DNA from: an uncultured Alphaproteobacteria bacterium | GTDB taxonomy: Bacteria > Pseudomonadota > Alphaproteobacteria > Rhizobiales > Aestuariivirgaceae | DNA: 64,000 nucleotides | Reading direction: 5' to 3' | Assembly (NCBI GenBank): GCA_937870685.1 | Contig: CALMZX010000144.1 | Location: 859-64,858, forward strand | Shown here: in pieces, positions 1 through 12,556 of the stretch | Layout of the letters: the number at the start of each line of letters is the position of its first letter | How positions within the stretch are numbered: position 1 is the stretch's first letter | The notes under the pieces: model-generated | The model's input: only the letters and a program-made list of their open reading frames with translations | Databases searched by the model: none | Told to the model about the DNA's origin: nothing | Made by a program: the position numbers and the translations under genes

Positions 1-1
1 C

Positions 2-928
2 CTCCTGGCGCTGGCGTGCGGCCTCAACTGCAAGGGCGCGGCTGCGGGCCAGGTCCAATGCCATGTCGGCAAATTGCCAGCGGATGCCCTGCCGGGCAGA
101 AAGCGGTTCACCTCCAATCACGCGTTCGGCCGCATAGGCCGTTGCGGCGTCAAAGGCGGCCTGGGCAATGCCAAGGCACATGGCAGCGACTTCGATGCGG
201 CCATTGTCGAGCACGCGCATGGCAGTCTTGAAGCCCTGGCCTTCGCTGCCGAGCAGGCTGTCGGCTGGCAGCAGGCAATCGAAGGCCAGCGGGAAGACAT
301 GGCCGCCTTTCAGTCCCATTGTGCGTTCCGGCTTTCCGGCGCTGAAGCCCGGTGTGCCGCGCGGCAAGATGAAGGCGGACATGCCGCGGTGGCCGGCTTG
401 CGGGTTGGTCACGGCATAGACGATGATGAAGTCCGCTTCGCCGCCATTGGAGATGAAGCATTTGCTGCCGGTGAGCCGCCAGCCATCGCCCTCACGGGTG
501 GCGCGGGTCTTCATGTCGGCGGGATCGGAGCCTGCGGTTGGCTCGGTGAGGGCGAAGGCCCCCAGTGTTTCACCTGCTGCGGCACGCGGCAACCATGTGG
601 CGCGCTGCGCTTCCGTTCCACCCAACAGAATCGAGTCGGTTGCGAGATAGTGTGCCGTGAGAGCCGAAACGGTGGAGCCGCAGGCCCCGGCCACCGTTTC
701 AACAATGGCAAGCAGAGCCTTGGCGGTTATGCCCGGTCCGCCGCAGGACTCCGGCAGGTTGGCGCCCAGCACGCCAAGGCTGGCAAGACCCTGCAGTTGC
801 TCGCGCACGAAGGTTGCCTGTTCGTCCACGGCGGCGGCCTTTGGCGCGATGTAGTCACCACAAAAGCGCTGCAACGCCTCAATGAAGGCGGCCTCGCCGC
901 TGTCCAGTCCGGGCCATTTCTCAATCAT
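2..928 (-). CDS. Acyl-CoA dehydrogenase family protein (3' end runs off the window)
   Basis: Not in the ORF track because it is truncated. Manual translation from ATG at 928: MIEKWPGLDSGEAAFIEALQRF...AFALTEPTAGSD...GSKCFISNGGEAD...RQGIRWQFADM (ACAD signatures). Start overlaps the CoA-transferase stop by 8 nt. Confidence 0.9.
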   Translation of the reverse strand, partial: MIEKWPGLDSGEAAFIEALQRFCGDYIAPKAAAVDEQATFVREQLQGLASLGVLGANLPESCGGPGITAKALLAIVETVAGACGSTVSALTAHYLATDSILLGGTEAQRATWLPRAAAGETLGAFALTEPTAGSDPADMKTRATREGDGWRLTGSKCFISNGGEADFIIVYAVTNPQAGHRGMSAFILPRGTPGFSAGKPERTMGLKGGHVFPLAFDCLLPADSLLGSEGQGFKTAMRVLDNGRIEVAAMCLGIAQAAFDAATAYAAERVIGGEPLSARQGIRWQFADMALDLARSRALAVEAARQRQE

Positions 929-2066
929 GTCGGTCTCCCGCCGGACGGAGTGCATCCAGAATTTCCTGCGTGTGTTCACCCAGTGCCGGGGCGGGCGCGC
1001 CGGCTTGTGGCTTTGTTCCGTCGAACCACACGGGCTGCGGCACCACGGCGGTGCCGCCCAGCACGGAAATGACTTCGCGGGCCCGCACCTGCTCGCTGTT
1101 TGCCGCCTCCCTGAAAGACTGGATGGGGGCGACGGGAATGCCCGCGCCTTCCAGCGCTTCAACGATGGCCGCGACGGTGCGTTCCGCGCTCCATGCCTCG
1201 ATCATTGCCTTGAGAGCGGGTTCATTCCGGGTGCGGGCTTCATCACTGGCAAAGCGCGTGTCCTGATCCAATCCGGGCCTGCCGATCAGCGCGGCAAAGA
1301 GGGTGAAGTGCTTTTCATTGAGAACGGCCACGGCAAACATGCCGTCGCAGGCACGGTAACAGCCGAAGGGGGTGGAGAGCGGATGGCGGTTGCCGACGCG
1401 GCGCGGTTCGCGCTTGCCATAGAACAACTGGGCATGGGCGGTAGGCAGCAGGGCGAAGAGCGCGTCATGCATGGCGACATCCAGTGTCGCGCCCTCACCG
1501 GTGCGTTCACGCTTGAGCAGGGCCGCAAGAATGGCCCAACTGGCAAACAGGCCTCCGGCAAGATCAGCGATGCTTTCACCGACCTTGAGCGGAACTGCGT
1601 CTTCATCGCCATTGACGGACATCATGCCTGAGAGCGCCTGCACGACCAGATCATAGGCGGGCTTTGCCGTCCATGGCCCGGTCTGGCCGAAGCCCGAGAT
1701 GGAGGCGTAGACAAGTGACGGTTTGCGGGCACGAAGTGTTGCGGCGTCCAGCCCGAGTTTCGCCGCCACGCCCGGCCGGAAGTTCTCGACGACCGCATCG
1801 CAGGTCAGTGCCAGTTCCTGCGCGGTGGCAATTCCTGCCTCCGTCTTCAGGTCCAGCACGATGGAGCGCTTGCCCCGGTTGGTGAGCTGGAAGAGGGCAC
1901 TCTTGTCATCGAGGAATGGTCCGATGTGGCGGTATTCATCTCCGCCGGGCGGTTCGAGCTTGATCACCTCGGCACCGAGATCGGCGAGCAGTGCCGTGCA
2001 GTAGGGGCCCGCCAGCACGCGGGTCAGATCGAAAATGCGAAAGCCCGAGAGCGGTCCGTCAGCCAT
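921..2066 (-). CDS. Family III CoA-transferase (CaiB/BaiF)
   Basis: DLTRVLAGPYCTALLADLGAEVIKLE, ENFRPG and IADLAGG (catalytic Asp position) motifs. Confidence 0.92.
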   Translation of the reverse strand: MADGPLSGFRIFDLTRVLAGPYCTALLADLGAEVIKLEPPGGDEYRHIGPFLDDKSALFQLTNRGKRSIVLDLKTEAGIATAQELALTCDAVVENFRPGVAAKLGLDAATLRARKPSLVYASISGFGQTGPWTAKPAYDLVVQALSGMMSVNGDEDAVPLKVGESIADLAGGLFASWAILAALLKRERTGEGATLDVAMHDALFALLPTAHAQLFYGKREPRRVGNRHPLSTPFGCYRACDGMFAVAVLNEKHFTLFAALIGRPGLDQDTRFASDEARTRNEPALKAMIEAWSAERTVAAIVEALEGAGIPVAPIQSFREAANSEQVRAREVISVLGGTAVVPQPVWFDGTKPQAGAPAPALGEHTQEILDALRPAGDRHD

Positions 2067-2865
2067 GGGGCTTCATCTCCAGGACAAGTTGGTGCAGGGC
2101 CGTCAGCACATCCGCAAGCACGCCGCGCAGCCGTGTGGCCTTTGTCTGGCTGAGCGTCCATGGTGGCGCTTCCGTCTCCAGATAGGTGGATTGCGCCAGT
2201 TCCATCTGGACGGCATGGACGTTGTGGTCCGGTCTGCCATAGTGACGCGTGGTCCAGCCGCCCTTGAAGCGGCCATTGCGCACGGAAGTGTAGCCCAACG
2301 CCGCCACACAGTGTCGCGCCATGCTGTCTTCGATTTCGGCTGCGCAGGTGCGGCCTGTGTCGGTGCCGATGTTGAAGTCGGGCAGGCGGCCTTCGAACAG
2401 GAAGGGAATGTGCGAGCGGATGGAGTGGCAGTCGTAAAGGATGGCGATGCCATGCAGGGCTTTGACACGCGCGATTTCGGCAGAGAGCGCCGCGTGATAG
2501 GGCGCGTGAAACAAGGCAAGGCGCTGGCGGATGTCCTCTGCCGATGGTGCCTCGCTCTCCCGCCAGATTGCCCTGCCATCAAAATCCGTTGTTGGCACAA
2601 GGCCGGTGGTGTTCTGGCCGGGATAGAGGCTTGTGCCGGCAGGATCGCGGTTGGCGTCGATTACATAGCGGTGGAACGTCGCCTGCACCGTGGTCGCCTC
2701 TGGCAGAAGGCCGTCATAGAGCCTGTCGATGTGCCAGTCGGTGTCGGCAAGGAGGTGGCCATTGTCGTTCAGACCCCGGGCAATGTCTTCGGGCACATCC
2801 GTTCCCGTGTGCGGGAAGGCGAGGATGACGGGTGACTGTCCCTGCCGCACGCGCACCGTTTCCAC
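2059..2865 (-). CDS. hutG: N-formylglutamate deformylase/amidohydrolase
   Basis: FPHTGTDVP, DTDWHIDRLY, YDCHSIRS, RFKGGWTTRHYG, AVQMELAQ motifs. Likely GTG start at 2865, just after the hutH stop. Confidence 0.92.
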   Translation of the reverse strand: METVRVRQGQSPVILAFPHTGTDVPEDIARGLNDNGHLLADTDWHIDRLYDGLLPEATTVQATFHRYVIDANRDPAGTSLYPGQNTTGLVPTTDFDGRAIWRESEAPSAEDIRQRLALFHAPYHAALSAEIARVKALHGIAILYDCHSIRSHIPFLFEGRLPDFNIGTDTGRTCAAEIEDSMARHCVAALGYTSVRNGRFKGGWTTRHYGRPDHNVHAVQMELAQSTYLETEAPPWTLSQTKATRLRGVLADVLTALHQLVLEMKPHG

Positions 2866-2866
2866 C

Positions 2867-4402
2867 TCATCCCTCCAGCGCGGGGAGAATGGCGGCGGCA
2901 ACCGTTAAAGTGATCCCGCCGGAGGAGACCAAGTCGCGTGCGGTGGCAAGATCCTTCGCCATGTAGCGGTCGTCTTCCAGTGTCGGCACAGCGGCACGGA
3001 TTGTCCTGATCACAGCCTCAAGCTGCGGACTGGTCTTGAGCGGGCCCCTGAGTTCCACGCCCTGTACGGCGCACAGTGCCTCGATGCCGAGAATGGTGAA
3101 GAGGTTCTCTGTCATCGGCAGCAGGCGGCGCGCTCCATGGCAGGCCATGGAGACGTGGTCTTCCTGGTTGGCGGAGGTGGGTGTTGAATCAACAGAGGCG
3201 GGATGCGCCATCTGCTTGTTCTCGGACATCAGGGCGGCCGAGGTGACTTCCGCAATCATCAGGCCGGAGTTGAGGCCGGGATGGCGCGAAAGGAACGGCG
3301 GCAGGCCGTAGGAGAGCGCCGGATCGACAAGGAGCGCGATGCGGCGCTGGGCGATGGCGCCAATCTCGCAGACGGCAAGCGCGATCTGGTCGGCGGCAAA
3401 GGCCACGGGTTCGGCATGGAAGTTTCCGCCGGAGACAACACTGTTGTCGGCCAGCACCAGCGGGTTGTCGGTAACAGCATTGGCCTCGATTTCCAGTGTG
3501 CGGGCCACCATGCGCAGGAGATCGAGACAGGCGCCATCCACCTGCGGCTGGCAGCGGATGCAATAGGGGTCCTGCACGCGCTCGTCGCCTTCGATGTGAC
3601 TCTCGCGGATCACCGAGCCGTCCAGCAGGTGACGGAGTGCGGCACCGGCATCAATCTGGCCCCTGTGGCCGCGCAGGGAGTGGATGTCCGGATGGAAAGG
3701 GGCTGATGATCCCATCGCCGCATCGGTGGACATGGCGCCTGTGATGAGTGCTGCCTTCAAGGCGCGATGGGCGCGGAACAGGCCCGCCAAGGCAAGGGCT
3801 GTCGAAACCTGCGTGCCATTGATCAGGGCAAGGCCTTCCTTGGCCGCGAGAACGACAGGCGTCAATCCGGCCCTGCCCAGCGCCGCGCGGCCCGGCAGCC
3901 GTTCGCCCTGATAGAAGGCTTCGCCTTCGCCGATCATCACGGCGGTCATGTGCGCCAGCGGTGCGAGGTCACCGGAGGCCCCGACGGAACCTTTTTCGGG
4001 AATGAGCGGTGTCACGCCCTTGTGCAGCATTGCCTCGATGAGGCGCACCAGTTCGAGGCGTACACCCGAGGCACCCCGGCCCAGAGACACGAGCTTCAGG
4101 GCCATGATGAGGCGCACGACATTTTCCGGCAGCGCGTCACCCACGCCGCAGCAGTGGGAGAGAATGAGGTTGCGCTGCAGTGTTGCCACGTCGGCGGCGT
4201 CGATCTTGATCGAGGCGAGTTTGCCGAAACCGGTGTTGACGCCATAGACAGGCGCGTTGCCGCGGGCGATCTCGTCGATGCGCTTCGCCGCCCGGGCAAT
4301 GCCGACGTCGAAGGAGCGGTCGAGGCTGGCGGCAGCGCCCTCCCAATAGATGCGGCGCAACTGGTCCAGCGTCACGTGGCCGGGATGCAGGGTGATGGTC
4401 AT
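2867..4402 (-). CDS. hutH: Histidine ammonia-lyase
   Basis: [13 protein letters not shown] (His-specific SH pair), [11 protein letters not shown] (MIO-forming ASG), [20 protein letters not shown]. Start MTITLHPG at 4402 in a TGATG overlap with hutI. Confidence 0.96.
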
Positions 4403-5619
4403 CAGCGTGTCCTTTGTCCCTTGAAGTAGCAGCTGTGCAGCGGGTTGAAGCCGATGCGGTAGACAAGCTCCGCCAGCGTATCGACATTCCAGATGGCGAG
4501 GTCGGCAGATTTGCCGGCTTCCAGTGTTCCTGCCTCGGCGCCAATGCCAAGGGCGCATGCGGCCTCACGCGTGCTGCCTGCGATGCACTCCTCGACCGTG
4601 AGGCCGAAGAGCGTCGCCGACATGTTCATGGTGAGCAGCAGGGAGGTGAGCGGCGATGTGCCGGGATTGCAGTCTGTCGAGATGGCGATTTTCACGCCTG
4701 CGTCGCGCAGCAGCTGCACGGGCGGCTTGCGCGTTTCATGGATGGCGTAGAAGGCCCCCGGCAGCAACACCGCAACGCTGCCCGCCTCCGCCATGGCAGA
4801 GGCACCTGCTGCATCGAGATATTCAAGATGATCTGCCGAAAGGGCATTGTAGCGCGCCGCCAGTTTCGCGCCGCCCATGTCGGACAATTGCTCGGCATGC
4901 AGCTTGACGGGCAGGCCAAGCGCCTTTGCCCTGTCGAAGACACGGGCCATCTCGTCCGTGGTGAAGGCAATGCGCTCGCAGAAACCATCGACGGCATCAA
5001 CGAGGCCTTCCGCCTGGGCGAGGTCGAGGCCCGGCAGCACCACGTCCGTGACATAGTCGCCGTTGCGGCCCTTGTAGGCAGCGGGTGTTGCGTGGGCGGC
5101 GAGATAGCTTGTCTTGACGCGGACAGGGCGCAGTCCGGCCACCTTCCGGGCGGCTCGCAGCATGCGCAATTCGCCATCGATCGAAAGGCCATAGCCGGAC
5201 TTGATCTCAAGCGTCGTCACACCTTCGGCCAACAAGGTGTCAATGCGTGGCAGGCTTGCGGCCGCCAGTTCATCCACGCCGAGTGCGTTGGTGGCCTGCA
5301 CCGAGGAGACAATGCCGCCGCCAGCACGGGCGATTTCTTCATAGCTGGCGCCAGCAAGCCGCATTTCAAATTCGCGGGCGCGGTGGCCGCCGTGCACGAT
5401 GTGGGTGTGGCAATCGACAAGGCCAGGCGTCACCCAGCGGCCTTCGAGGTTGATGGGTTCGGCGCTGTTCCGCGGCAGGTCAGCCTCGGGACCGGCATAG
5501 GCGATCCTGCCGTTCTCGATCAGGACGGCACCGCGCTCAATGAGGCCAAGGCCCGGAGTGCCGGGCGCAAGGCAGGCAAGGCGGGCGTTGCCGAGGCAGA
5601 TGCTTGGGGGAGGTGACAT
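4402..5619 (-). CDS. hutI: Imidazolonepropionase
   Basis: [43 protein letters not shown] motifs. Confidence 0.95.
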
Positions 5620-5652: not shown

Positions 5653-5666
5653 TATGTATAGACATA
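5653..5666. promoter_or_regulatory. Putative HutC operator in the divergent hutI/hutF spacer
   Basis: Near-palindrome TATGTATAGACATA resembles the known HutC-type box (TGTATATACA core); hutC is adjacent. Confidence 0.7.
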
Positions 5667-5731
5667 TTACGACCCATGCAATAGGATTCTGTCATCGCAC
5701 CTGAACACCCGTTGCCGTAGCGAGGACCGCC

Positions 5732-7081
5732 ATGACATTTCTCTTTGCCGAGTCTGCCCTGCTGCCCACCGGTTGGCACAGCATGGTCCGCATCCGCGTG
5801 CAGGATGGCCTCATTGCTTCCGTTGAATCAGGTGCAGCACCGCAGCCCGAAGATGAAAGGCATGCGGTGCTGGTGCCGGGTCTCGGTAATCTGCATTCCC
5901 ATGCCTTCCAGCGCGGCATGGCCGGGCTGGCGGAGGTGCGCGGCCCCGGCGACGACAGCTTCTGGAGCTGGCGCAAGATCATGTATGGCTTTGCCCTTGC
6001 CATCGCGCCGGACCAGCTGGAGGCCGTTGCAGCACAGCTTTATGTGGAAATGCTGGAGGCCGGTTACACGCGCGTCGGCGAGTTCCACTACCTGCATCAC
6101 GATGTGGATGGCCGCCCCTATGCACGCCTCGCCGAACTGGCGGAACGGATCGCGGCGGCCTCTGCTGAAACCGGACTGGCGCTGACACTGCTTCCGGTCT
6201 TCTATGCCCATGCAGGATTTGGCGGCAGGGAACCGCAGCCCGCGCAACGGCGATTCATCACCTCGCCTGATCTCTATGCGCGCCTCGTTTCGGACTGCCG
6301 GGGCATCACGCAAGCCCTGCCGGGTGGAAAGACCGGCGTGGCGCCGCACAGCCTGCGCGCCGTGACGCCGGATGAATTGAAAGCCATCCTGCCGCTGTCG
6401 GAACAGGGGCCTATTCACATTCACATCGCCGAACAGGTGCAGGAGGTGGAGGATTGCGTGGCCTGGTCCGGCCAGCGTCCGGTGGACTGGCTGCTGGGTC
6501 ACATGCCGGTCAATGACAGGTGGACCCTCATCCACGCCACGCACATGACGGAGAAGGAAACCGCTGGCATGGCCGCCGCCAAGGCCGTGGCGGGTCTCTG
6601 CCCGGTGACGGAAGCCAATCTGGGCGATGGTGTGTTTCCAGCCAACCGCTTTCTGGGGGCAGGTGGCCGCTTTGGCGTGGGTTCGGATTCAAACGTGTTC
6701 GTTTCCCTCCCCGAAGAGCTGCGGCAGCTTGAGTATTCACAGCGCCTCTTTCACCGCTCGCGCAATGTGATTGCCGCTCCCGGCCAATCCACGGGCGAAA
6801 GGCTGTTCAGGGAAGCGGTGGCCGGTGGCGCGCAGTCGTTGCAGGGTGGCGGCCCCATTGCCATGGGCAACGACGCCGACCTTGTCTCCCTTGATCTGTC
6901 GGCCTGTGATCATCTCCCGGCCTCAGCCAGTCTCGACCAGTGGATCTTCGCACGTGGCGTCAGTGTCGACTGTGTCTGGGCGCGCGGCGTGAAGCGCGTG
7001 AAACAGGGGCGGCATGCGGCGCGCGACGCAATCGCCTCGCGCTTCAGGGCCGTCATGCGCAGCCTTGCGGAGAAGATGTGA
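5732..7081 (+). CDS. hutF: Formimidoylglutamate deiminase
   Basis: NLHSHAFQRGMAG, VGEFHYLHH, APHSLRAV, HIHIAEQ, CPVTEANLGDG, GSDSN motifs. Confidence 0.95.
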   Translation: MTFLFAESALLPTGWHSMVRIRVQDGLIASVESGAAPQPEDERHAVLVPGLGNLHSHAFQRGMAGLAEVRGPGDDSFWSWRKIMYGFALAIAPDQLEAVAAQLYVEMLEAGYTRVGEFHYLHHDVDGRPYARLAELAERIAAASAETGLALTLLPVFYAHAGFGGREPQPAQRRFITSPDLYARLVSDCRGITQALPGGKTGVAPHSLRAVTPDELKAILPLSEQGPIHIHIAEQVQEVEDCVAWSGQRPVDWLLGHMPVNDRWTLIHATHMTEKETAGMAAAKAVAGLCPVTEANLGDGVFPANRFLGAGGRFGVGSDSNVFVSLPEELRQLEYSQRLFHRSRNVIAAPGQSTGERLFREAVAGGAQSLQGGGPIAMGNDADLVSLDLSACDHLPASASLDQWIFARGVSVDCVWARGVKRVKQGRHAARDAIASRFRAVMRSLAEKM

Positions 7082-7112: not shown

Positions 7113-7850
7113 ATGATCCGGAACGCAAAGCGCGCTCCCGCCGCGAGCCTGCACCAGCGCATCCTCTCTGACCTTGAGCACAGAATCGTCTCGGGCCAAT
7201 GGCCGCCGGGGCACCGCCTGCCGTTCGAGGTCGATCTGGCGGAGTCCTACAAGGTCTCGCGCATGACCGTGAACAAGGTGCTGACGCAGATGGCAGGCGC
7301 CGGCCTCATCGAGCGCCGCCGGAAGCTCGGCAGTTTCGTGGCGCAGCCGCAGGCGCAGTCCGCCATTCTTGAAATCCATGACATCGAAACGGAAGTGCGG
7401 TCACTCAATCTCGCCTATGACTACCGCCTTCTGGAACAGGCAAAGCGAATGGCGTCGGCGGATGACATCGCGAACTTCGGCCTTGCCCGCAAAGCTGGCG
7501 TTCTCGCCAGCAGGAGCCTGCATCTCGCGGGCGGGGTGCCCTTCTGCCTGGAAGACCGACTCATCAATCTCGCGGTGGTGCCGCAAGCAGCCGATGCAGA
7601 TTTCAGCCAGACGCCACCGGGCACATGGCTCACCCGTCAGGTGCCGTGGAGCACGGCGGAGCACACCATCCGCGCCATCGCGGCCGATCCCGCGCTGGCC
7701 CGCGCCCTGTCGATTCCGAAACATGCGCCATGCCTCGTGGTGCAGCGCCGCACCTGGAACGGCGAGGGGCCCGTCACCTTCGCGCGCTTCTCCTATCCGG
7801 CGGACAAACATGTGGTGGTGGCGCGCTTCACACCTGCGTCCTCCACCTGA
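7113..7850 (+). CDS. hutC: Histidine utilisation repressor (GntR/UTRA)
   Basis: wHTH (IVSGQWPPGHRLPFE...VSRMTVNK) plus UTRA domain (VPWSTAEHTI); located in the hut cluster. Confidence 0.9.
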   Translation: MIRNAKRAPAASLHQRILSDLEHRIVSGQWPPGHRLPFEVDLAESYKVSRMTVNKVLTQMAGAGLIERRRKLGSFVAQPQAQSAILEIHDIETEVRSLNLAYDYRLLEQAKRMASADDIANFGLARKAGVLASRSLHLAGGVPFCLEDRLINLAVVPQAADADFSQTPPGTWLTRQVPWSTAEHTIRAIAADPALARALSIPKHAPCLVVQRRTWNGEGPVTFARFSYPADKHVVVARFTPASST

Positions 7851-8045: not shown

Positions 8046-8648
8046 ATGTTTCAGGTGCGAATACATGGCCGTGGCGGCCAGGGCGTCGTCACCGCAGCGG
8101 AAATGCTCTCCGTTGCGGCCTTCATCGAGGGGCGGCACGCCCAGGCCTTTCCCAGTTTCGGCTCGGAACGCATGGGGGCACCTGTCGTTGCCTTCTGCCG
8201 CATTTCCGACCGCGAGATACGGCTGCGCGAACCGATCCAGACGCCCGATGCGCTGATCGTGCAGGACGTCACACTGTTCCGGGCCATGGATGTGCTGGAA
8301 GGCCTCTCGCCGTCGGGCTACCTGCTGGTCAACACCGGCAAGGGCTTCGCGGACATCCATCAGGAAGCTGCGGCGGCGCGCCTGCCGCCCGGCCACGCCC
8401 AGACCATTGGTGCCACGGAGCTGGCGCTCGCGCATGTGGGGCGCCCTGCTCCCAACACGTCATTGCTCGGGGCCTTCACGGCGCTCTCCGGTCTCGTCTC
8501 GCTCGAATCCGTCCTGGAAGCCATCCGCCGCACCTTTCCCGGAAAGGTGGGCGAGGCCAATGTGATCGCGGCGCGCGCCGCCCATGATCTGGTGGCAGCG
8601 CGCATGGCACCGGACATGCAAACCCGAAAGGATGCAGCCCATGCTTGA
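8046..8648 (+). CDS. porC: 2-oxoacid:acceptor oxidoreductase, gamma subunit
   Basis: RIHGRGGQGVVTAAE, FPSFGSERMGAPV, PNTSLLGA motifs. Confidence 0.9.
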   Translation: MFQVRIHGRGGQGVVTAAEMLSVAAFIEGRHAQAFPSFGSERMGAPVVAFCRISDREIRLREPIQTPDALIVQDVTLFRAMDVLEGLSPSGYLLVNTGKGFADIHQEAAAARLPPGHAQTIGATELALAHVGRPAPNTSLLGAFTALSGLVSLESVLEAIRRTFPGKVGEANVIAARAAHDLVAARMAPDMQTRKDAAHA

Positions 8649-9924
8649 ACAGCTGGAAGGCTCAAAGGCCATGGCCAAGGTGATCGGCCTGTGCCGTCCG
8701 CAGGTGGTCTGCGCCTATCCGATCACGCCGCAGACCCATATCGTTGAAGGCCTGGGTGAACTGGTCCGCACAGGCGACGTGCAGAACTGCGAGTTCATCA
8801 ATGTGGAAAGCGAGTTCGCGGCGCTCTCCGTTGCCATCGGGGCCTCCGCCGCCGGGGCGCGGGCCTACACGGCGACGGCGAGCCAGGGCCTGCTCTTCAT
8901 GGCGGAGGCGGTTTACAATGCGGCGGGCCTCGGCCTTCCCATCGTCATGACGCTGGGCAACCGCGCCATCGGTGCTCCCATCAACATCTGGAACGACCAC
9001 TCTGATGCCATGGCGCTGCGCGAGGCGGGCTGGTTCCAGCTCTTTGCCGAGAACAACCAGGAAGCCGCCGATCTGCACATCATCGCCTTCAGGCTGGCGG
9101 AAGAGCTGTCGGTGCCCACGATGGTCTGTGTTGACGGCTTCATCCTCACCCATGCCATGGAGCGGATTGACATTCCCGAGCAGGCGCAGGTCGATACCTA
9201 TCTGCCGCCCTATGAGCCGGTGCAGGTGCTGGACCCGGAAGACCCCATCTCCATCGGTGCCATGGTCGGGCCGGATGCCTTCACCGAGGTGCGCTACCTG
9301 CAATTCTACAAGCAGCAGACCGCCTTCCGTCTCATCGAAAAACTGGCGCATGACTTCAAGAAGCAGTTTGGCCGTGCGGCAGGCGGTCTCCTGCGGACCT
9401 ACAGCATGGATGAAGCCGAGACGGTTGTCGTGGCCATGGGTTCGGTCAATGGCACCATCAAGGACGTGATCGACGAGATGCGCGCCGACGGCATCCTGAT
9501 CGGCCTCGTCTGCCTCATCACCTTCCGGCCCTTCCCCACGCGGGCGCTGCAGGAAGCGCTGTCCCATGCCAAGGATGTGATCGTCATCGACAAGGCACTG
9601 GATGCGGGCATGGGCGGGCCGCTGGCCAGCAACATTGCCATTGCACTGCGCAACCTCGCGCAGACACCCAACATGCATTCGGTGGTGGCAGGGCTGGGCG
9701 GCCGCCCGGTCACCAAGGCAGCACTGCACCGCGTCTTCCGCCAGGCCGTCATCCAGCCATGGGATGGACCGCATTTCCTTGATCTCAACGAACGGGTGAT
9801 CGCGCGCGAAATCCACCGCAAGGGCAAAGCGCGGCGCTCCGGGCCATCGGCGGAAAACGTGCTCAAGCTGCTGGAACGTGAACGGGCCGAAAAGATCGCA
9901 GCGGCAGAGGGAACCGGCCGATGA
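8641..9924 (+). CDS. porA: Pyruvate-type 2-oxoacid oxidoreductase, alpha subunit
   Basis: AYPITPQT, VESEFAA, TATASQGL, NRAIGAP motifs. Confidence 0.9.
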   Translation: MLEQLEGSKAMAKVIGLCRPQVVCAYPITPQTHIVEGLGELVRTGDVQNCEFINVESEFAALSVAIGASAAGARAYTATASQGLLFMAEAVYNAAGLGLPIVMTLGNRAIGAPINIWNDHSDAMALREAGWFQLFAENNQEAADLHIIAFRLAEELSVPTMVCVDGFILTHAMERIDIPEQAQVDTYLPPYEPVQVLDPEDPISIGAMVGPDAFTEVRYLQFYKQQTAFRLIEKLAHDFKKQFGRAAGGLLRTYSMDEAETVVVAMGSVNGTIKDVIDEMRADGILIGLVCLITFRPFPTRALQEALSHAKDVIVIDKALDAGMGGPLASNIAIALRNLAQTPNMHSVVAGLGGRPVTKAALHRVFRQAVIQPWDGPHFLDLNERVIAREIHRKGKARRSGPSAENVLKLLERERAEKIAAAEGTGR

Positions 9925-10931
9925 ACGAGATCCAGAAACTGAAATTCTACCAGAAGGGCACGCTCACGGTTGGCAACCGGTTGGTGGATGAAGCCCAGCG
10001 CAATGTGCAGGCCAGCCTGTCGCGCTCGAATTCACTCACCTGCGGACACCGCGCCTGCCAGGGTTGCGGCGAGGCTCTGGGCGCGCGTTATGCCATCGAT
10101 GCCGCCATGCGGGCGAGCGGCAACAATCTCATCGCCGTCAACGCCACCGGCTGTCTGGAAGTCTTCACCACGCCCTATCCCGAAACGTCCTGGCAGATGC
10201 CATGGATGCACTCGCTTTTCGGAAACGCGGCGGCGGTGGCAACAGGTGTGGCGGCGGCCATGCGCGTCACCAACAGGGCGGGCACACGCGTTGTCGCGCA
10301 GGGCGGCGATGGCGGCACCACGGATATCGGCTTCGGCTGCCTCTCTGGCATGTTCGAACGCAACGATGACGTGCTCTACATCTGCTACGACAACGAAGGT
10401 TACATGAACACGGGCGTGCAGCGCTCCTCGGCAACACCGCCCGCGGCACGCACCGCCACCACGCCGGTTCTGGGGGATGAGCCCGGCAATGTCTTCGGCA
10501 CCGGCAAGTTCGTGCCCAAGATCGCCGTGGCCCACGACATTCCCTATGTGGCGACGGCCAGTGTCGCCGACCTGCACGATCTCGAAATGAAGGTGACCAA
10601 GGCCATGGGTTTCCGGGGTGCGCGCTACATCCAGATCAATGTGCCGTGTCCGCTCGGCTGGGGGGCTGCCTCCCATGACACGATCCGCCTGGCGCGGCTC
10701 GCCATCGAAACCGGCCTGTTCCCCATTTTCGAGGCCGAAAATGGCCGCTTCACACATGTGCGCAAGATCAGGCAGCGCAAGTCCGTCGCCGAATATCTCA
10801 AGCTGCAGCGGCGCTTTGCCCACCTCTTCAAGGGCGGCAAGGAGGACCCCCGCGTGGCGCGCATCCAGGCCATCGCCGACCGTCACATCGCGGACTTCGG
10901 CCTTCTCGAGACACCGGCAGGAGCGGCCTGA
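9921..10931 (+). CDS. porB: 2-oxoacid oxidoreductase, beta (TPP-binding) subunit
   Basis: HRACQGCG, ATGCLEV, GGDGG...YDNEGYMNTG (TPP motif), VPCPLGW. Confidence 0.92.
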   Translation: MNEIQKLKFYQKGTLTVGNRLVDEAQRNVQASLSRSNSLTCGHRACQGCGEALGARYAIDAAMRASGNNLIAVNATGCLEVFTTPYPETSWQMPWMHSLFGNAAAVATGVAAAMRVTNRAGTRVVAQGGDGGTTDIGFGCLSGMFERNDDVLYICYDNEGYMNTGVQRSSATPPAARTATTPVLGDEPGNVFGTGKFVPKIAVAHDIPYVATASVADLHDLEMKVTKAMGFRGARYIQINVPCPLGWGAASHDTIRLARLAIETGLFPIFEAENGRFTHVRKIRQRKSVAEYLKLQRRFAHLFKGGKEDPRVARIQAIADRHIADFGLLETPAGAA

Positions 10932-12556
10932 TGAAACACCCCTATGCCATTGCACTCGACGTGGGCACCAGCCGCCGCAACCTCACGGGATCATGGCGCA
11001 CCCTGCGGCCCGAATATGTTGACCGCCTGCCGCCGTGCAACAATGCCTGCCCGGCAGGCGAGGATATCCAGGGCTGGCTGTTCCATGCGGAGTCGGGCGA
11101 CTACGAGGCGGCATGGCGGGCACTGACGCTCAACAATCCGCTGCCCGCGATCATGGGGCGCGTGTGCTATCATCCGTGTGAAAATGCCTGCAACCGGGCC
11201 AGCATCGATGTGGCCGTCGGGATCAATTCGGTTGAGCGTTTCCTCGGCGACCTGGCAATCGAAAAGGGCTGGGCCTTCGCGCCGCCACCATCTGAAAGTG
11301 GCAAGAAAGTGCTTGTGGTGGGGGCTGGCCCCGCGGGGCTTTCGGCTGCCTATCACCTGCGCCGCCTCGGCCATCAGGTGACCCTGCGTGAGGCCGGGCC
11401 ACTGGCGGGTGGCATGATGCGGTTTGGCATCCCGAAATACCGCCTGCCGCGCCAGATCATCGATGCCGAAGTGAAGCGTATCACTGCCATGGGCGTTGAG
11501 CTTGTTCTCGACAGCAAGGTCGATGACATTGAGCAGGCAATGAAGGACGGCGGTTTTGACGCGGCGTTCCTTGCCGTCGGGGCTCATATCGCGAAGCGCG
11601 CTTATGTCCCGGCGGCAGGTGCTGCCAAGGTGCTGGATGCGGTACAGTTCCTGCGCTCCATGGAGGGCGAGGCACCGCCGCTCCTGGGCCGCAAGGTTGT
11701 TGTCTATGGTGGTGGCAACACGGCCATTGACGTGGCCCGCACGGCGCGCCGTCTCGGCGCGGAAGAAGCAATCATCGTTTACCGCCGCACCCGCGAGAAA
11801 ATGCCTGCCCATGACTTCGAGGTCGAGGAGGCACTGGAAGAGGGCGTGTCGATGAAATGGCTTTCCACCATCAAAACGGTGGATGGTGGCACCCTGCAGA
11901 TCGAGAAGATGGCGCTGGACGACAAGGGCTTTCCCCAGCCCACCGGCGAGTTCGAAACGCTGGAGGCAGACAGTCTCGTTCTGGCGCTGGGGCAAGACGT
12001 GGATCTCTCGCTGCTCGACAACGCGCCCGGCATCGTCATCCAGGACGGCGTGGTGAAAGTCGGGCCGGACATGATGACGGGGCGCGCGGGCGTCTTTGCC
12101 GGTGGCGACATGGCACCCTCGGAGCGCACCGTCACGGTGGCGGTCGGCCATGGCAAGAAGGCGGCGCGCTACATTGACGGCTACCTGCGCGGTGAACCCT
12201 ACGCGGCTGCGCCCAAACATGGCCTTGCTTCGGCCGACCGCCTGAACAGCTGGTATTATGAGGATGCGCCCGCCACGGTTCGGCCCATGCTCAACGCGGC
12301 GCGGCGCATCAACAGCTTCGAGGAAGTGCAGGGCGGACTTGACGAGACCAATGCCCTCTACGAGGCCCGGCGCTGCCTGTCCTGCGGCAACTGCTTCGAG
12401 TGTGACAACTGTTATGGAGTCTGCCCGGACAATGCCGTCATCAAGCTTGGCGCGGGAAACCGATTCCGCATCGACTATGACTACTGCAAGGGCTGTGGCC
12501 TGTGCGCTGCCGAATGTCCCTGCGGTGCCATCGACATGGTACCAGAGACCATCTGA
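10931..12556 (+). CDS. PorD-like 4Fe-4S protein fused with a GltD/SudA-like FAD/NADPH oxidoreductase
   Basis: N-terminal TGSWRTLRP (PorD-like); PPCNNACP...GRVCYHPCENAC Fe-S domain; GAGPAG FAD site; GGGNTAID...YRR NADPH site; C-terminal ferredoxin motifs CFECDNCYGVCP and CKGCGLCAAECP. Confidence 0.85.
   Translation: MKHPYAIALDVGTSRRNLTGSWRTLRPEYVDRLPPCNNACPAGEDIQGWLFHAESGDYEAAWRALTLNNPLPAIMGRVCYHPCENACNRASIDVAVGINSVERFLGDLAIEKGWAFAPPPSESGKKVLVVGAGPAGLSAAYHLRRLGHQVTLREAGPLAGGMMRFGIPKYRLPRQIIDAEVKRITAMGVELVLDSKVDDIEQAMKDGGFDAAFLAVGAHIAKRAYVPAAGAAKVLDAVQFLRSMEGEAPPLLGRKVVVYGGGNTAIDVARTARRLGAEEAIIVYRRTREKMPAHDFEVEEALEEGVSMKWLSTIKTVDGGTLQIEKMALDDKGFPQPTGEFETLEADSLVLALGQDVDLSLLDNAPGIVIQDGVVKVGPDMMTGRAGVFAGGDMAPSERTVTVAVGHGKKAARYIDGYLRGEPYAAAPKHGLASADRLNSWYYEDAPATVRPMLNAARRINSFEEVQGGLDETNALYEARRCLSCGNCFECDNCYGVCPDNAVIKLGAGNRFRIDYDYCKGCGLCAAECPCGAIDMVPETI

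Follow-up and report, generated by a model that had tools for sequence, protein, structure and literature searches.

The stretch of DNA analysed here, 64,000 nucleotides long and referred to below as the window, spans positions 859-64858 of contig C144 (CALMZX010000144.1) of an uncultured alphaproteobacterium of the Aestuariivirgaceae, whose assembly (GCA_937870685.1) amounts to 3.29 Mb in 155 contigs. It opens on a histidine utilisation (hut) locus in which genes for a family III coenzyme A (CoA)-transferase, called CoAT in what follows, and for an acyl-CoA dehydrogenase (ACAD) stand in line with the genes of histidine degradation, and it is the role of this pair that concerns us. The hutF and hutC genes are divergent from the minus-strand genes led by hutI:

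5732-7081, plus strand: hutF, formimidoylglutamate deiminase (NF006683, 715.5 bits against a cut-off of 654)
7113-7850, plus strand: hutC, GntR/UTRA-type histidine-utilisation repressor (TIGR02018, 293.4 bits against 220)
4402-5619, minus strand: hutI, imidazolonepropionase, the operon's first gene (TIGR01224, 424.8 bits against 298)
2867-4402, minus strand: hutH, histidine ammonia-lyase (TIGR01225, 724.4 bits against 539)
2059-2865, minus strand: hutG, N-formylglutamate deformylase, with a GTG start (TIGR02017, 371.3 bits against 278.75)
921-2066, minus strand: CoAT, a CaiB/BaiF-type transferase of 381 residues (PF02515, 409 bits, full length)
1-928, minus strand: ACAD of the short-chain (SCAD)/Bcd-like kind (Pfam Acyl-CoA_dh_N, _M and _1)

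The original prediction had described five co-oriented minus-strand genes with overlapping or abutting boundaries, and both the positions of the open reading frames (ORFs) and the profile matches agree with it. The junctions too are as it claimed: the hutI stop and the hutH start have one base in common (TGATG, 4404-4400), a 1-nt gap at 2866 separates hutH from hutG, and 8-nt overlaps connect the hutG stop with the CoAT start (2059-2066) and CoAT with ACAD (921-928). The ACAD gene starts with the ATG at 928, behind a Shine-Dalgarno-like GGGAGA; the window covers the N-terminal 309 of its 384 codons, and the remainder lies left of the window, extending to C144:632. The hutC ORF opens at 7014, with the ATG at 7113 as its probable start, and the TIGR02018 match begins at residue 47 of the long ORF.

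The statement that no hutU lies in the window holds literally but misleads, since the gene begins only 12 nt past the ACAD stop, beyond the left edge (ATG at C144:619, preceded by a Shine-Dalgarno-like caggag). It is split across contigs, leaving the end of C144 and resuming at the end of contig C84; because the end of C84 and the start of C144 have 55 identical bases overlapping inside hutU, the contigs can be joined and hutU is one intact gene. A search of the genome contigs found this directly downstream gene to be the only hutU in an assembly with a single set of hut genes. No terminator-like site was found within the operon on the minus strand. The predicted operon order is thus hutI-hutH-hutG-CoAT-ACAD-hutU, with all junctions being overlaps or gaps of at most 12 nt, and the pair is predicted to belong to the same transcription unit as the hut structural genes, behind a HutC-type operator. 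The arrangement is conserved across other genomes and the contig ends overlap exactly over 55 nt, which rules out a chance insertion or an assembly artefact.

The HutC-like operator that had been proposed at 5653-5666 was found there as a 14-bp imperfect palindrome, TATGTATAGACATA, in the 112-bp intergenic region between hutI and hutF. It matches TTGTATATACAA at 9 of 12 positions and overlaps the -35 element of the sole promoter-like site found (TAGACA-17-TAGGAT, 5659-5687), which faces hutF. Elsewhere the match is closer: a perfect TTGTATATACAA stands 75 bp upstream of CoAT in Acinetobacter, where more copies flank the module and where about 0.003 perfect sites per 21 kb would be expected by chance, and the sequence recurs with one mismatch ahead of hutU-CoAT-ACAD in G155, a sampled genome with the gene order of Pseudomonas sp. 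GL-B-12, and with two mismatches in the latter. Predicted HutC-type operators thus precede the module in the window, in Acinetobacter and in Pseudomonas. In Comamonas and Variovorax, where the pair is provided with a LysR regulator of its own, the operator precedes a neighbouring NitT/TauT-type ABC transporter.

The family of each protein is clear. CoAT aligns to PF02515 over residues 6-366 (profile positions 1-366), and its nearest solved structure is YfdE (4hl6). Its Asp168, in a GESIAD motif, is invariant in 12 orthologues and is matched in YfdE by the Asp of 'vgtSlaDl'; we take it to be the equivalent of Frc Asp169, the catalytic aspartate that forms the acyl anhydride. ACAD has the complete three-domain architecture (PF02771, PF02770 and PF00441 all matched) and aligns end to end with its nearest solved structure, Bcd of Clostridium difficile (5ol2_C, 297 bits); all 55 orthologues compared retain its catalytic base, Glu368 of the IYEGS loop. 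The hut-linked ACADs have in addition seven clade-specific invariant positions, N57, L58, D98, G103, F212, D337 and R365, among them two aspartates (D98 and D337) and an arginine (R365) that stands three residues before the catalytic glutamate. These residues may offer a lead on the substrate and are not evidence for it.

Known members of the two families could be rejected as identities. Against the NCBIfam equivalog models CoAT scores 303 bits for succinate-glutarate transferase (cut-off 750), 298 for mesaconate transferase (700), 292 for oxalate transferase (522), 209 for the formyl-CoA transferase Frc (504) and 122.7 for CaiB (NF002914, 413). The best NCBIfam match of ACAD is the acryloyl-CoA reductase AcrC, at 267.9 bits against a cut-off of 640, and glutaryl-CoA dehydrogenase (163 against 470), 3-sulfinopropanoyl-CoA desulfinase (172 against 600) and CaiA (NF002885, 118.6 against 540) fall further short. 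NCBIfam of June 2026 holds no model for either protein, though it includes models for thiourocanate hydratases, which were described only recently. The public names of orthologues in cultured bacteria are generic or taken from distant relatives, 'CaiB/BaiF family', 'formyl-CoA transferase', 'CoA:oxalate CoA-transferase' and '3-sulfinopropanoyl-CoA desulfinase' being in use. Orthologues to which a reader may refer are WP_062562018.1 (CoAT) and WP_062562019.1 (ACAD) of Paracoccus aminovorans and WP_034347992.1 (CoAT) and WP_003071850.1 (ACAD) of Comamonas testosteroni, the Comamonas CoAT being one of those publicly named 'formyl-CoA transferase' or 'CoA:oxalate CoA-transferase'.

Whether the linkage is conserved, as the original prediction had asked, was addressed by pattern scans with one genome per species, in which CoAT orthologues (at least 47% identity) are set apart by a clear gap from paralogues (at most about 45%), and a locus was counted as hut-linked if a hut structural gene lay within the fetched flanks of 10 kb or less. 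The pair makes up an orthologue group of its own, at 47-50% identity or above. Hut structural genes were found near 52 of 71 orthologue loci compared with 3 of 181 paralogue loci; the 19 unlinked orthologue loci include several on short contigs. In a tree of 90 CoATs a clade of 29 rows (SH-aLRT 96) holds 19 hut-linked rows, and outside it 2 of 61 rows are linked (L111 and L176). When ACAD was searched against 400 evenly sampled Pseudomonadota genomes, orthologues (53-65% identity) came up in seven, six of them hut-linked, while second-tier ACADs (42-44% identity) in six more genomes were in no case hut-linked or beside a CoAT. All seven pair-holders in this sample have hutU, against a background of 121 of the 400, and in the seven genomes where the pair is not hut-linked hutU is present elsewhere without exception. 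We regard it as very likely that the CoAT-ACAD pair is tied to histidine and urocanate metabolism.

The linkage extends over Alpha-, Beta- and Gammaproteobacteria and one Bacillota genome, in several gene orders (a slash is used below to set a gene or regulator apart from the run that follows it):

hutG-CoAT-ACAD-hutU, the order of the window: Paracoccus aminovorans, P. limosus, P. simplex, P. binzhouensis, Paenirhodobacter, Ahrensia and relatives
hutC-like-hutU-CoAT-ACAD-NCS1 permease: Pseudomonas
hutU-CoAT-ACAD: four same-genus relatives, at only ~52% identity
NCS1/CoAT-ACAD-hutU-hutI: Acinetobacter
LysR/CoAT-ACAD-hutC (bona fide), ~4.8 kb from hutH-NCS1-hutU: Comamonas testosteroni ATCC 11996 and other Comamonas
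the Comamonas-like layout minus the downstream hutC: Variovorax, Polaromonas, Xenophilus
LysR/CoAT-ACAD adjoining a full hut set: Acetobacter
CoAT-ACAD-hutU-etfB-etfA-hutU2-AraC-NCS1, a self-contained module: Neobacillus cucumis (Bacillota), L111:9992-21060
LysR/CoAT-ACAD-etfB-etfA-447-residue 'Gate'-domain membrane protein-ETF-QO: Zobellella iuensis, L009:6966-15226, and the same in L010 and L011, listed for comparison, as it is not hut-linked

This variation in gene order between lineages argues for selection rather than for the inheritance of one arrangement. In Comamonas hutC follows ACAD on the same strand after 47 nt (L213:12397-13150 and L104:12416-13150); the hutC of C. brasiliensis (L104) scores 278.5 bits against TIGR02018, and C. 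testosteroni is ~98% identical to it in the adjacent CoAT. Two more HutC-like GntR genes lie beside hutH in Comamonas. Two holders carry more than one hutU. In G155 one of two copies is dedicated to the module, and the two are equally canonical (1033 bits for the dedicated second copy, 1034 for the other). The Neobacillus module carries an extra hutU whose divergent product shows 46-52% identity to the window's HutU; it scores 785 bits against TIGR01228 and 610 bits against the S-methyl-thiourocanate hydratase model, whose cut-off is 880. The Zobellella cluster is distant from hut genes, with hutU elsewhere in the genome, and its Gate-domain protein (PF07670, no NCBIfam match) may be an uptake system for the module's substrate. 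A CytX-like NCS1 permease is also encoded on C84, convergent on the hutU of the source genome; as a member of the module it was rejected, with only 22-23% identity in partial alignments to the NCS1 permeases of the Pseudomonas and Neobacillus modules.

What might such a pair do beside HutU? We think it probable, if far from assured, that CoAT and ACAD together feed the Hut pathway through a side branch of two enzymes, converting imidazole propionate (dihydrourocanate) to urocanate. In such a branch CoAT, through Asp168, would exchange imidazole propionate and urocanoyl-CoA for imidazolepropionyl-CoA and free urocanate, and ACAD, with Glu368 as base, would take the alpha and beta hydrogens of imidazolepropionyl-CoA to regenerate urocanoyl-CoA. 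At steady state urocanoyl-CoA would itself be the CoA donor, succinyl- or acetyl-CoA serving to prime the cycle. The electrons would pass to an electron-transfer flavoprotein (ETF), from there to ETF:quinone oxidoreductase (ETF-QO) and on to quinone, while the released urocanate would be hydrated by HutU, the product of the next gene, and taken on to glutamate by the remaining Hut enzymes; overall this would be a CoA cycle of the CaiB/CaiA kind operating oxidatively. The use of ETF as electron acceptor is suggested by gene content: the source genome, with no more than two family III transferases and four ACADs, carries etfBA on contig C105 and ETF-QO on C148, the genes for the whole path occur in the Zobellella cluster, and etfB-etfA occur in that of Neobacillus.

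What we infer is which acid is the substrate, which CoA ester serves as donor and which way the reaction runs, the substrate being deduced from context. The modules hold the transferase and the dehydrogenase, sometimes with ETF, ETF-QO or a permease, and never a hydratase, 3-hydroxyacyl-CoA dehydrogenase or thiolase, which implies that the transferase sets free an alpha,beta-unsaturated acid as their output. HutU, which acts on urocanate, is the partner most closely tied to the module, and of the histidine-derived acids considered imidazole propionate alone would be turned by an ACAD into a Hut intermediate; imidazole acetate was set aside because it has no beta-hydrogen and imidazole lactate because a dehydratase would be required. 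Arylpropionyl- and heteroarylpropionyl-CoAs are established ACAD substrates, as phenylpropionyl-, indolepropionyl- and furylpropionyl-CoA are with medium-chain acyl-CoA dehydrogenase, and arylpropionyl-CoAs are good substrates for SCAD/Bcd-like enzymes. There is also a precedent for the layout in the itaconate cluster, where an additional ACAD gives entry to a saturated analogue, methylsuccinate (PMC12290011). The conversion via CoA esters that the original prediction had put forward is supported by the position of hutU directly after ACAD, by a linkage that is conserved in differing gene orders and specific to one orthologous clade of each enzyme, by the presence of hutU in all the pair-holders and by operators in three lineages; all of the computational checks that the prediction called for favoured it.

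Three basal members of the CoAT clade have other partners. In L115:2349-7546, a metagenome-assembled genome (MAG), the order is IclR-MDR-CoAT-hutU-168-residue ORF, where MDR is a PIG3-like medium-chain reductase, and in L112:7053-11137, also from a MAG, it is hutI-hutC-MDR-CoAT; no ACAD orthologue was found in either genome. The MDR form may make imidazole propionate or act on another compound, and it may be a route of urocanate reduction independent of the known urocanate reductase UrdA. In Rhizobium beringeri (L116:7377-12869) CoAT stands with a glycine-betaine-type binding protein, a histidine ammonia-lyase (HAL)-like enzyme scoring 503 bits against TIGR01225 (below its cut-off of 539), a 3-hydroxyacyl-CoA dehydrogenase and an enoyl-CoA hydratase (crotonase). 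This layout looks like one in which an aryl-acrylate, set free from hercynine or a similar betaine, undergoes beta-oxidation, and it suggests that the CoAT clade may handle a range of aryl-acrylate or aryl-propionate acids.

Several observations weigh against an imidazole propionate branch. About a quarter of the orthologue loci, among them those of Zobellella, Variovorax sp. KK3 and the sampled genome G072, are without a hut link, some of them on short contigs. No CoA ligase was found in the module to prime the cycle. L112 and L115 have an NAD(P)H reductase of the PIG3-like kind instead of ACAD; such an enzyme can only reduce an enoyl thioester, could run only towards imidazole propionate and does not fit an oxidative route. 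Coote and Hassall (1973) may also have reported that P. testosteroni starts on imidazolylpropionate with a hydroxylation that yields imidazolyl-lactate and not with a CoA-dependent step. That the pair works in the reverse direction, as a cytoplasmic CoA-dependent urocanate reductase (urocanate to urocanoyl-CoA to imidazolepropionyl-CoA to imidazole propionate), strikes us as very improbable, as does the role that would go with it, an electron sink during histidine use in the manner of CaiAB/FixABCX or FldA/AcdA and an alternative to UrdA. ACADs of the same subfamily are reductive in anaerobes, with Bcd, AcrC and CarC among the nearest characterised relatives, the MDR-type enzyme that replaces ACAD in L112 and L115 can only reduce, and Zobellella, whose cluster includes ETF and ETF-QO, is a facultative anaerobe. 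Most holders, however, are aerobes (Paracoccus, Comamonas, Acinetobacter, Pseudomonas) that rely on ubiquinone, and the flow of electrons from ubiquinol to an enoyl-CoA is uphill. A reductive module would moreover compete with the adjacent HutU for urocanate, and the hutU genes that belong to the modules of G155 and Neobacillus are sensible only if urocanate is the product.

The same logic may apply to another substrate, either a modified imidazole acid, for example imidazole propionate that is N-methylated or thiolated, or a different heteroaryl-propionate, with the enoate passed to HutU or a HutU paralogue. The second, divergent HutU of the Neobacillus module would fit such a substrate, as would the company of a HAL-like lyase and a betaine-type binding protein in the basal L116; the adjacent hutH and hutU, on the other hand, score as canonical equivalogs in the window and at most loci, the dedicated second hutU of G155 is no less canonical than its counterpart, and no methyltransferase, desulfurase or similar gene lies beside the pair, so that we hold this to be unlikely. 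Quite unlikely, too, is a link to Hut that is merely regulatory or concerns a by-product, whether through salvage from the breakdown of the labile 4-imidazolone-5-propionate, through the removal of imidazole propionate as an unwanted ligand of HutC and not for nutrition, or through an unrelated short-chain acid pathway that hitch-hikes with hut genes. Some orthologue loci are indeed unlinked and have a LysR regulator of their own, and the nearest curated CoAT models are for dicarboxylates (glutarate, mesaconate, oxalate), but these models are reported as scoring below half their cut-offs, and hitch-hiking would leave unexplained at least five gene orders over three classes and two phyla, the complete co-occurrence with hutU and the HutC operators.

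Taking the variants together with the imidazole propionate branch, we speculate that the hut-linked CoAT clade marks a set of undescribed CoA-dependent routes for imidazole acids that exist in three forms, with ACAD, with an MDR reductase or with a hydratase and a 3-hydroxyacyl-CoA dehydrogenase, although we consider this wider proposal doubtful. Under it the ACAD form (the window, Paracoccus, Comamonas, Acinetobacter, Pseudomonas and Neobacillus) may be the missing pathway that consumes imidazole propionate, the MDR form of L112 and L115 may be a cytoplasmic, UrdA-independent synthesis of imidazole propionate from urocanate, and the L116 form may be a beta-oxidation of a urocanate-like acrylate without HutU.

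The CaiB/CaiA enzymes of carnitine metabolism in Escherichia coli, which work with FixABCX, also combine a family III CoA-transferase with an ACAD, pass CoA back and forth between product and substrate, which lets acids enter and leave in free form, and use an ETF-type partner for electrons; their substrates, however, are trimethylammonium betaines, they run in the reductive, anaerobic direction, they need the CaiC ligase and the CaiD hydratase, and the window's proteins are not members, scoring far under both equivalog cut-offs. FldA with AcdA/EtfAB, which leads from aryl-lactate to aryl-propionate in Clostridium sporogenes, and the caffeyl-CoA reductase CarC (6fah_C, detectable as a relative of ACAD at 209 bits) are alike in that aryl-acrylyl- or aryl-propionyl-CoA is handled by a family III transferase and a Bcd-like ACAD. 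These systems differ in being strictly anaerobic and reductive, in using a 2-hydroxyacyl-CoA dehydratase and a bifurcating ETF and in not being hut-linked, and we know of no imidazole substrate shown for them. UrdA of Shewanella and gut bacteria acts on the same pair of acids, urocanate and imidazole propionate, but as a single FAD/FMN enzyme of the fumarate reductase type that works on the free acid, without CoA esters and only reductively; its fold family is unrelated, the window's pair matching only CoA_transf_3 and ACAD domains. In the itaconate cluster an embedded ACAD, methylsuccinyl-CoA dehydrogenase, likewise imports the saturated analogue of an intermediate with the help of the cluster's CoA-transferase, and it is likewise rare, with a prevalence of 1.6% in prokaryotes (PMC12290011). 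That cluster handles C5-dicarboxylates on a pathway of CoA esters, whereas Hut uses free acids, and the transferase here must consequently release the product as well.

Further along the window, ~730 nt downstream of hutC and beyond a 191-residue unassigned ORF, three translationally coupled genes occupy 8584-12556 on the plus strand. Two of them encode PorA-like and PorB-like subunits of a 2-oxoacid:ferredoxin oxidoreductase, which at 443 and 333 bits fall short of the equivalog cut-offs. The third encodes a GltD-like flavoprotein of 541 residues, of the NAD(P)-binding type, that carries a ferredoxin tail resembling PorD (PRK12771 at 766 bits). The three may together make up a 2-oxoacid oxidoreductase linked to pyridine nucleotides.

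Imidazole propionate is a microbial product of histidine that is linked to type 2 diabetes and cardiovascular disease. Bacterial growth on it was reportedly described in the 1960s-70s, with no genes identified. A full-text search of the literature returned no paper on its catabolism at the level of genes or by way of CoA; the reviews found cover its formation by HutH and UrdA and say nothing about its destruction, a 2026 review being silent on the matter. What is new here is a CoAT/ACAD pair with a newly proposed substrate, placed on sequence grounds as a probable new feeder branch of Hut, and the module is present in cultured, tractable bacteria such as Paracoccus aminovorans, Comamonas testosteroni and Acinetobacter. 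If the proposal is true, public names that mislead, 'formyl-CoA transferase' and '3-sulfinopropanoyl-CoA desulfinase' among them, would be corrected, and enzymes and marker genes would be at hand for the removal of imidazole propionate. It would also give named genes to a catabolic ability long known but unassigned, and a textbook pathway whose other steps all use free acids would gain an entry that depends on CoA.

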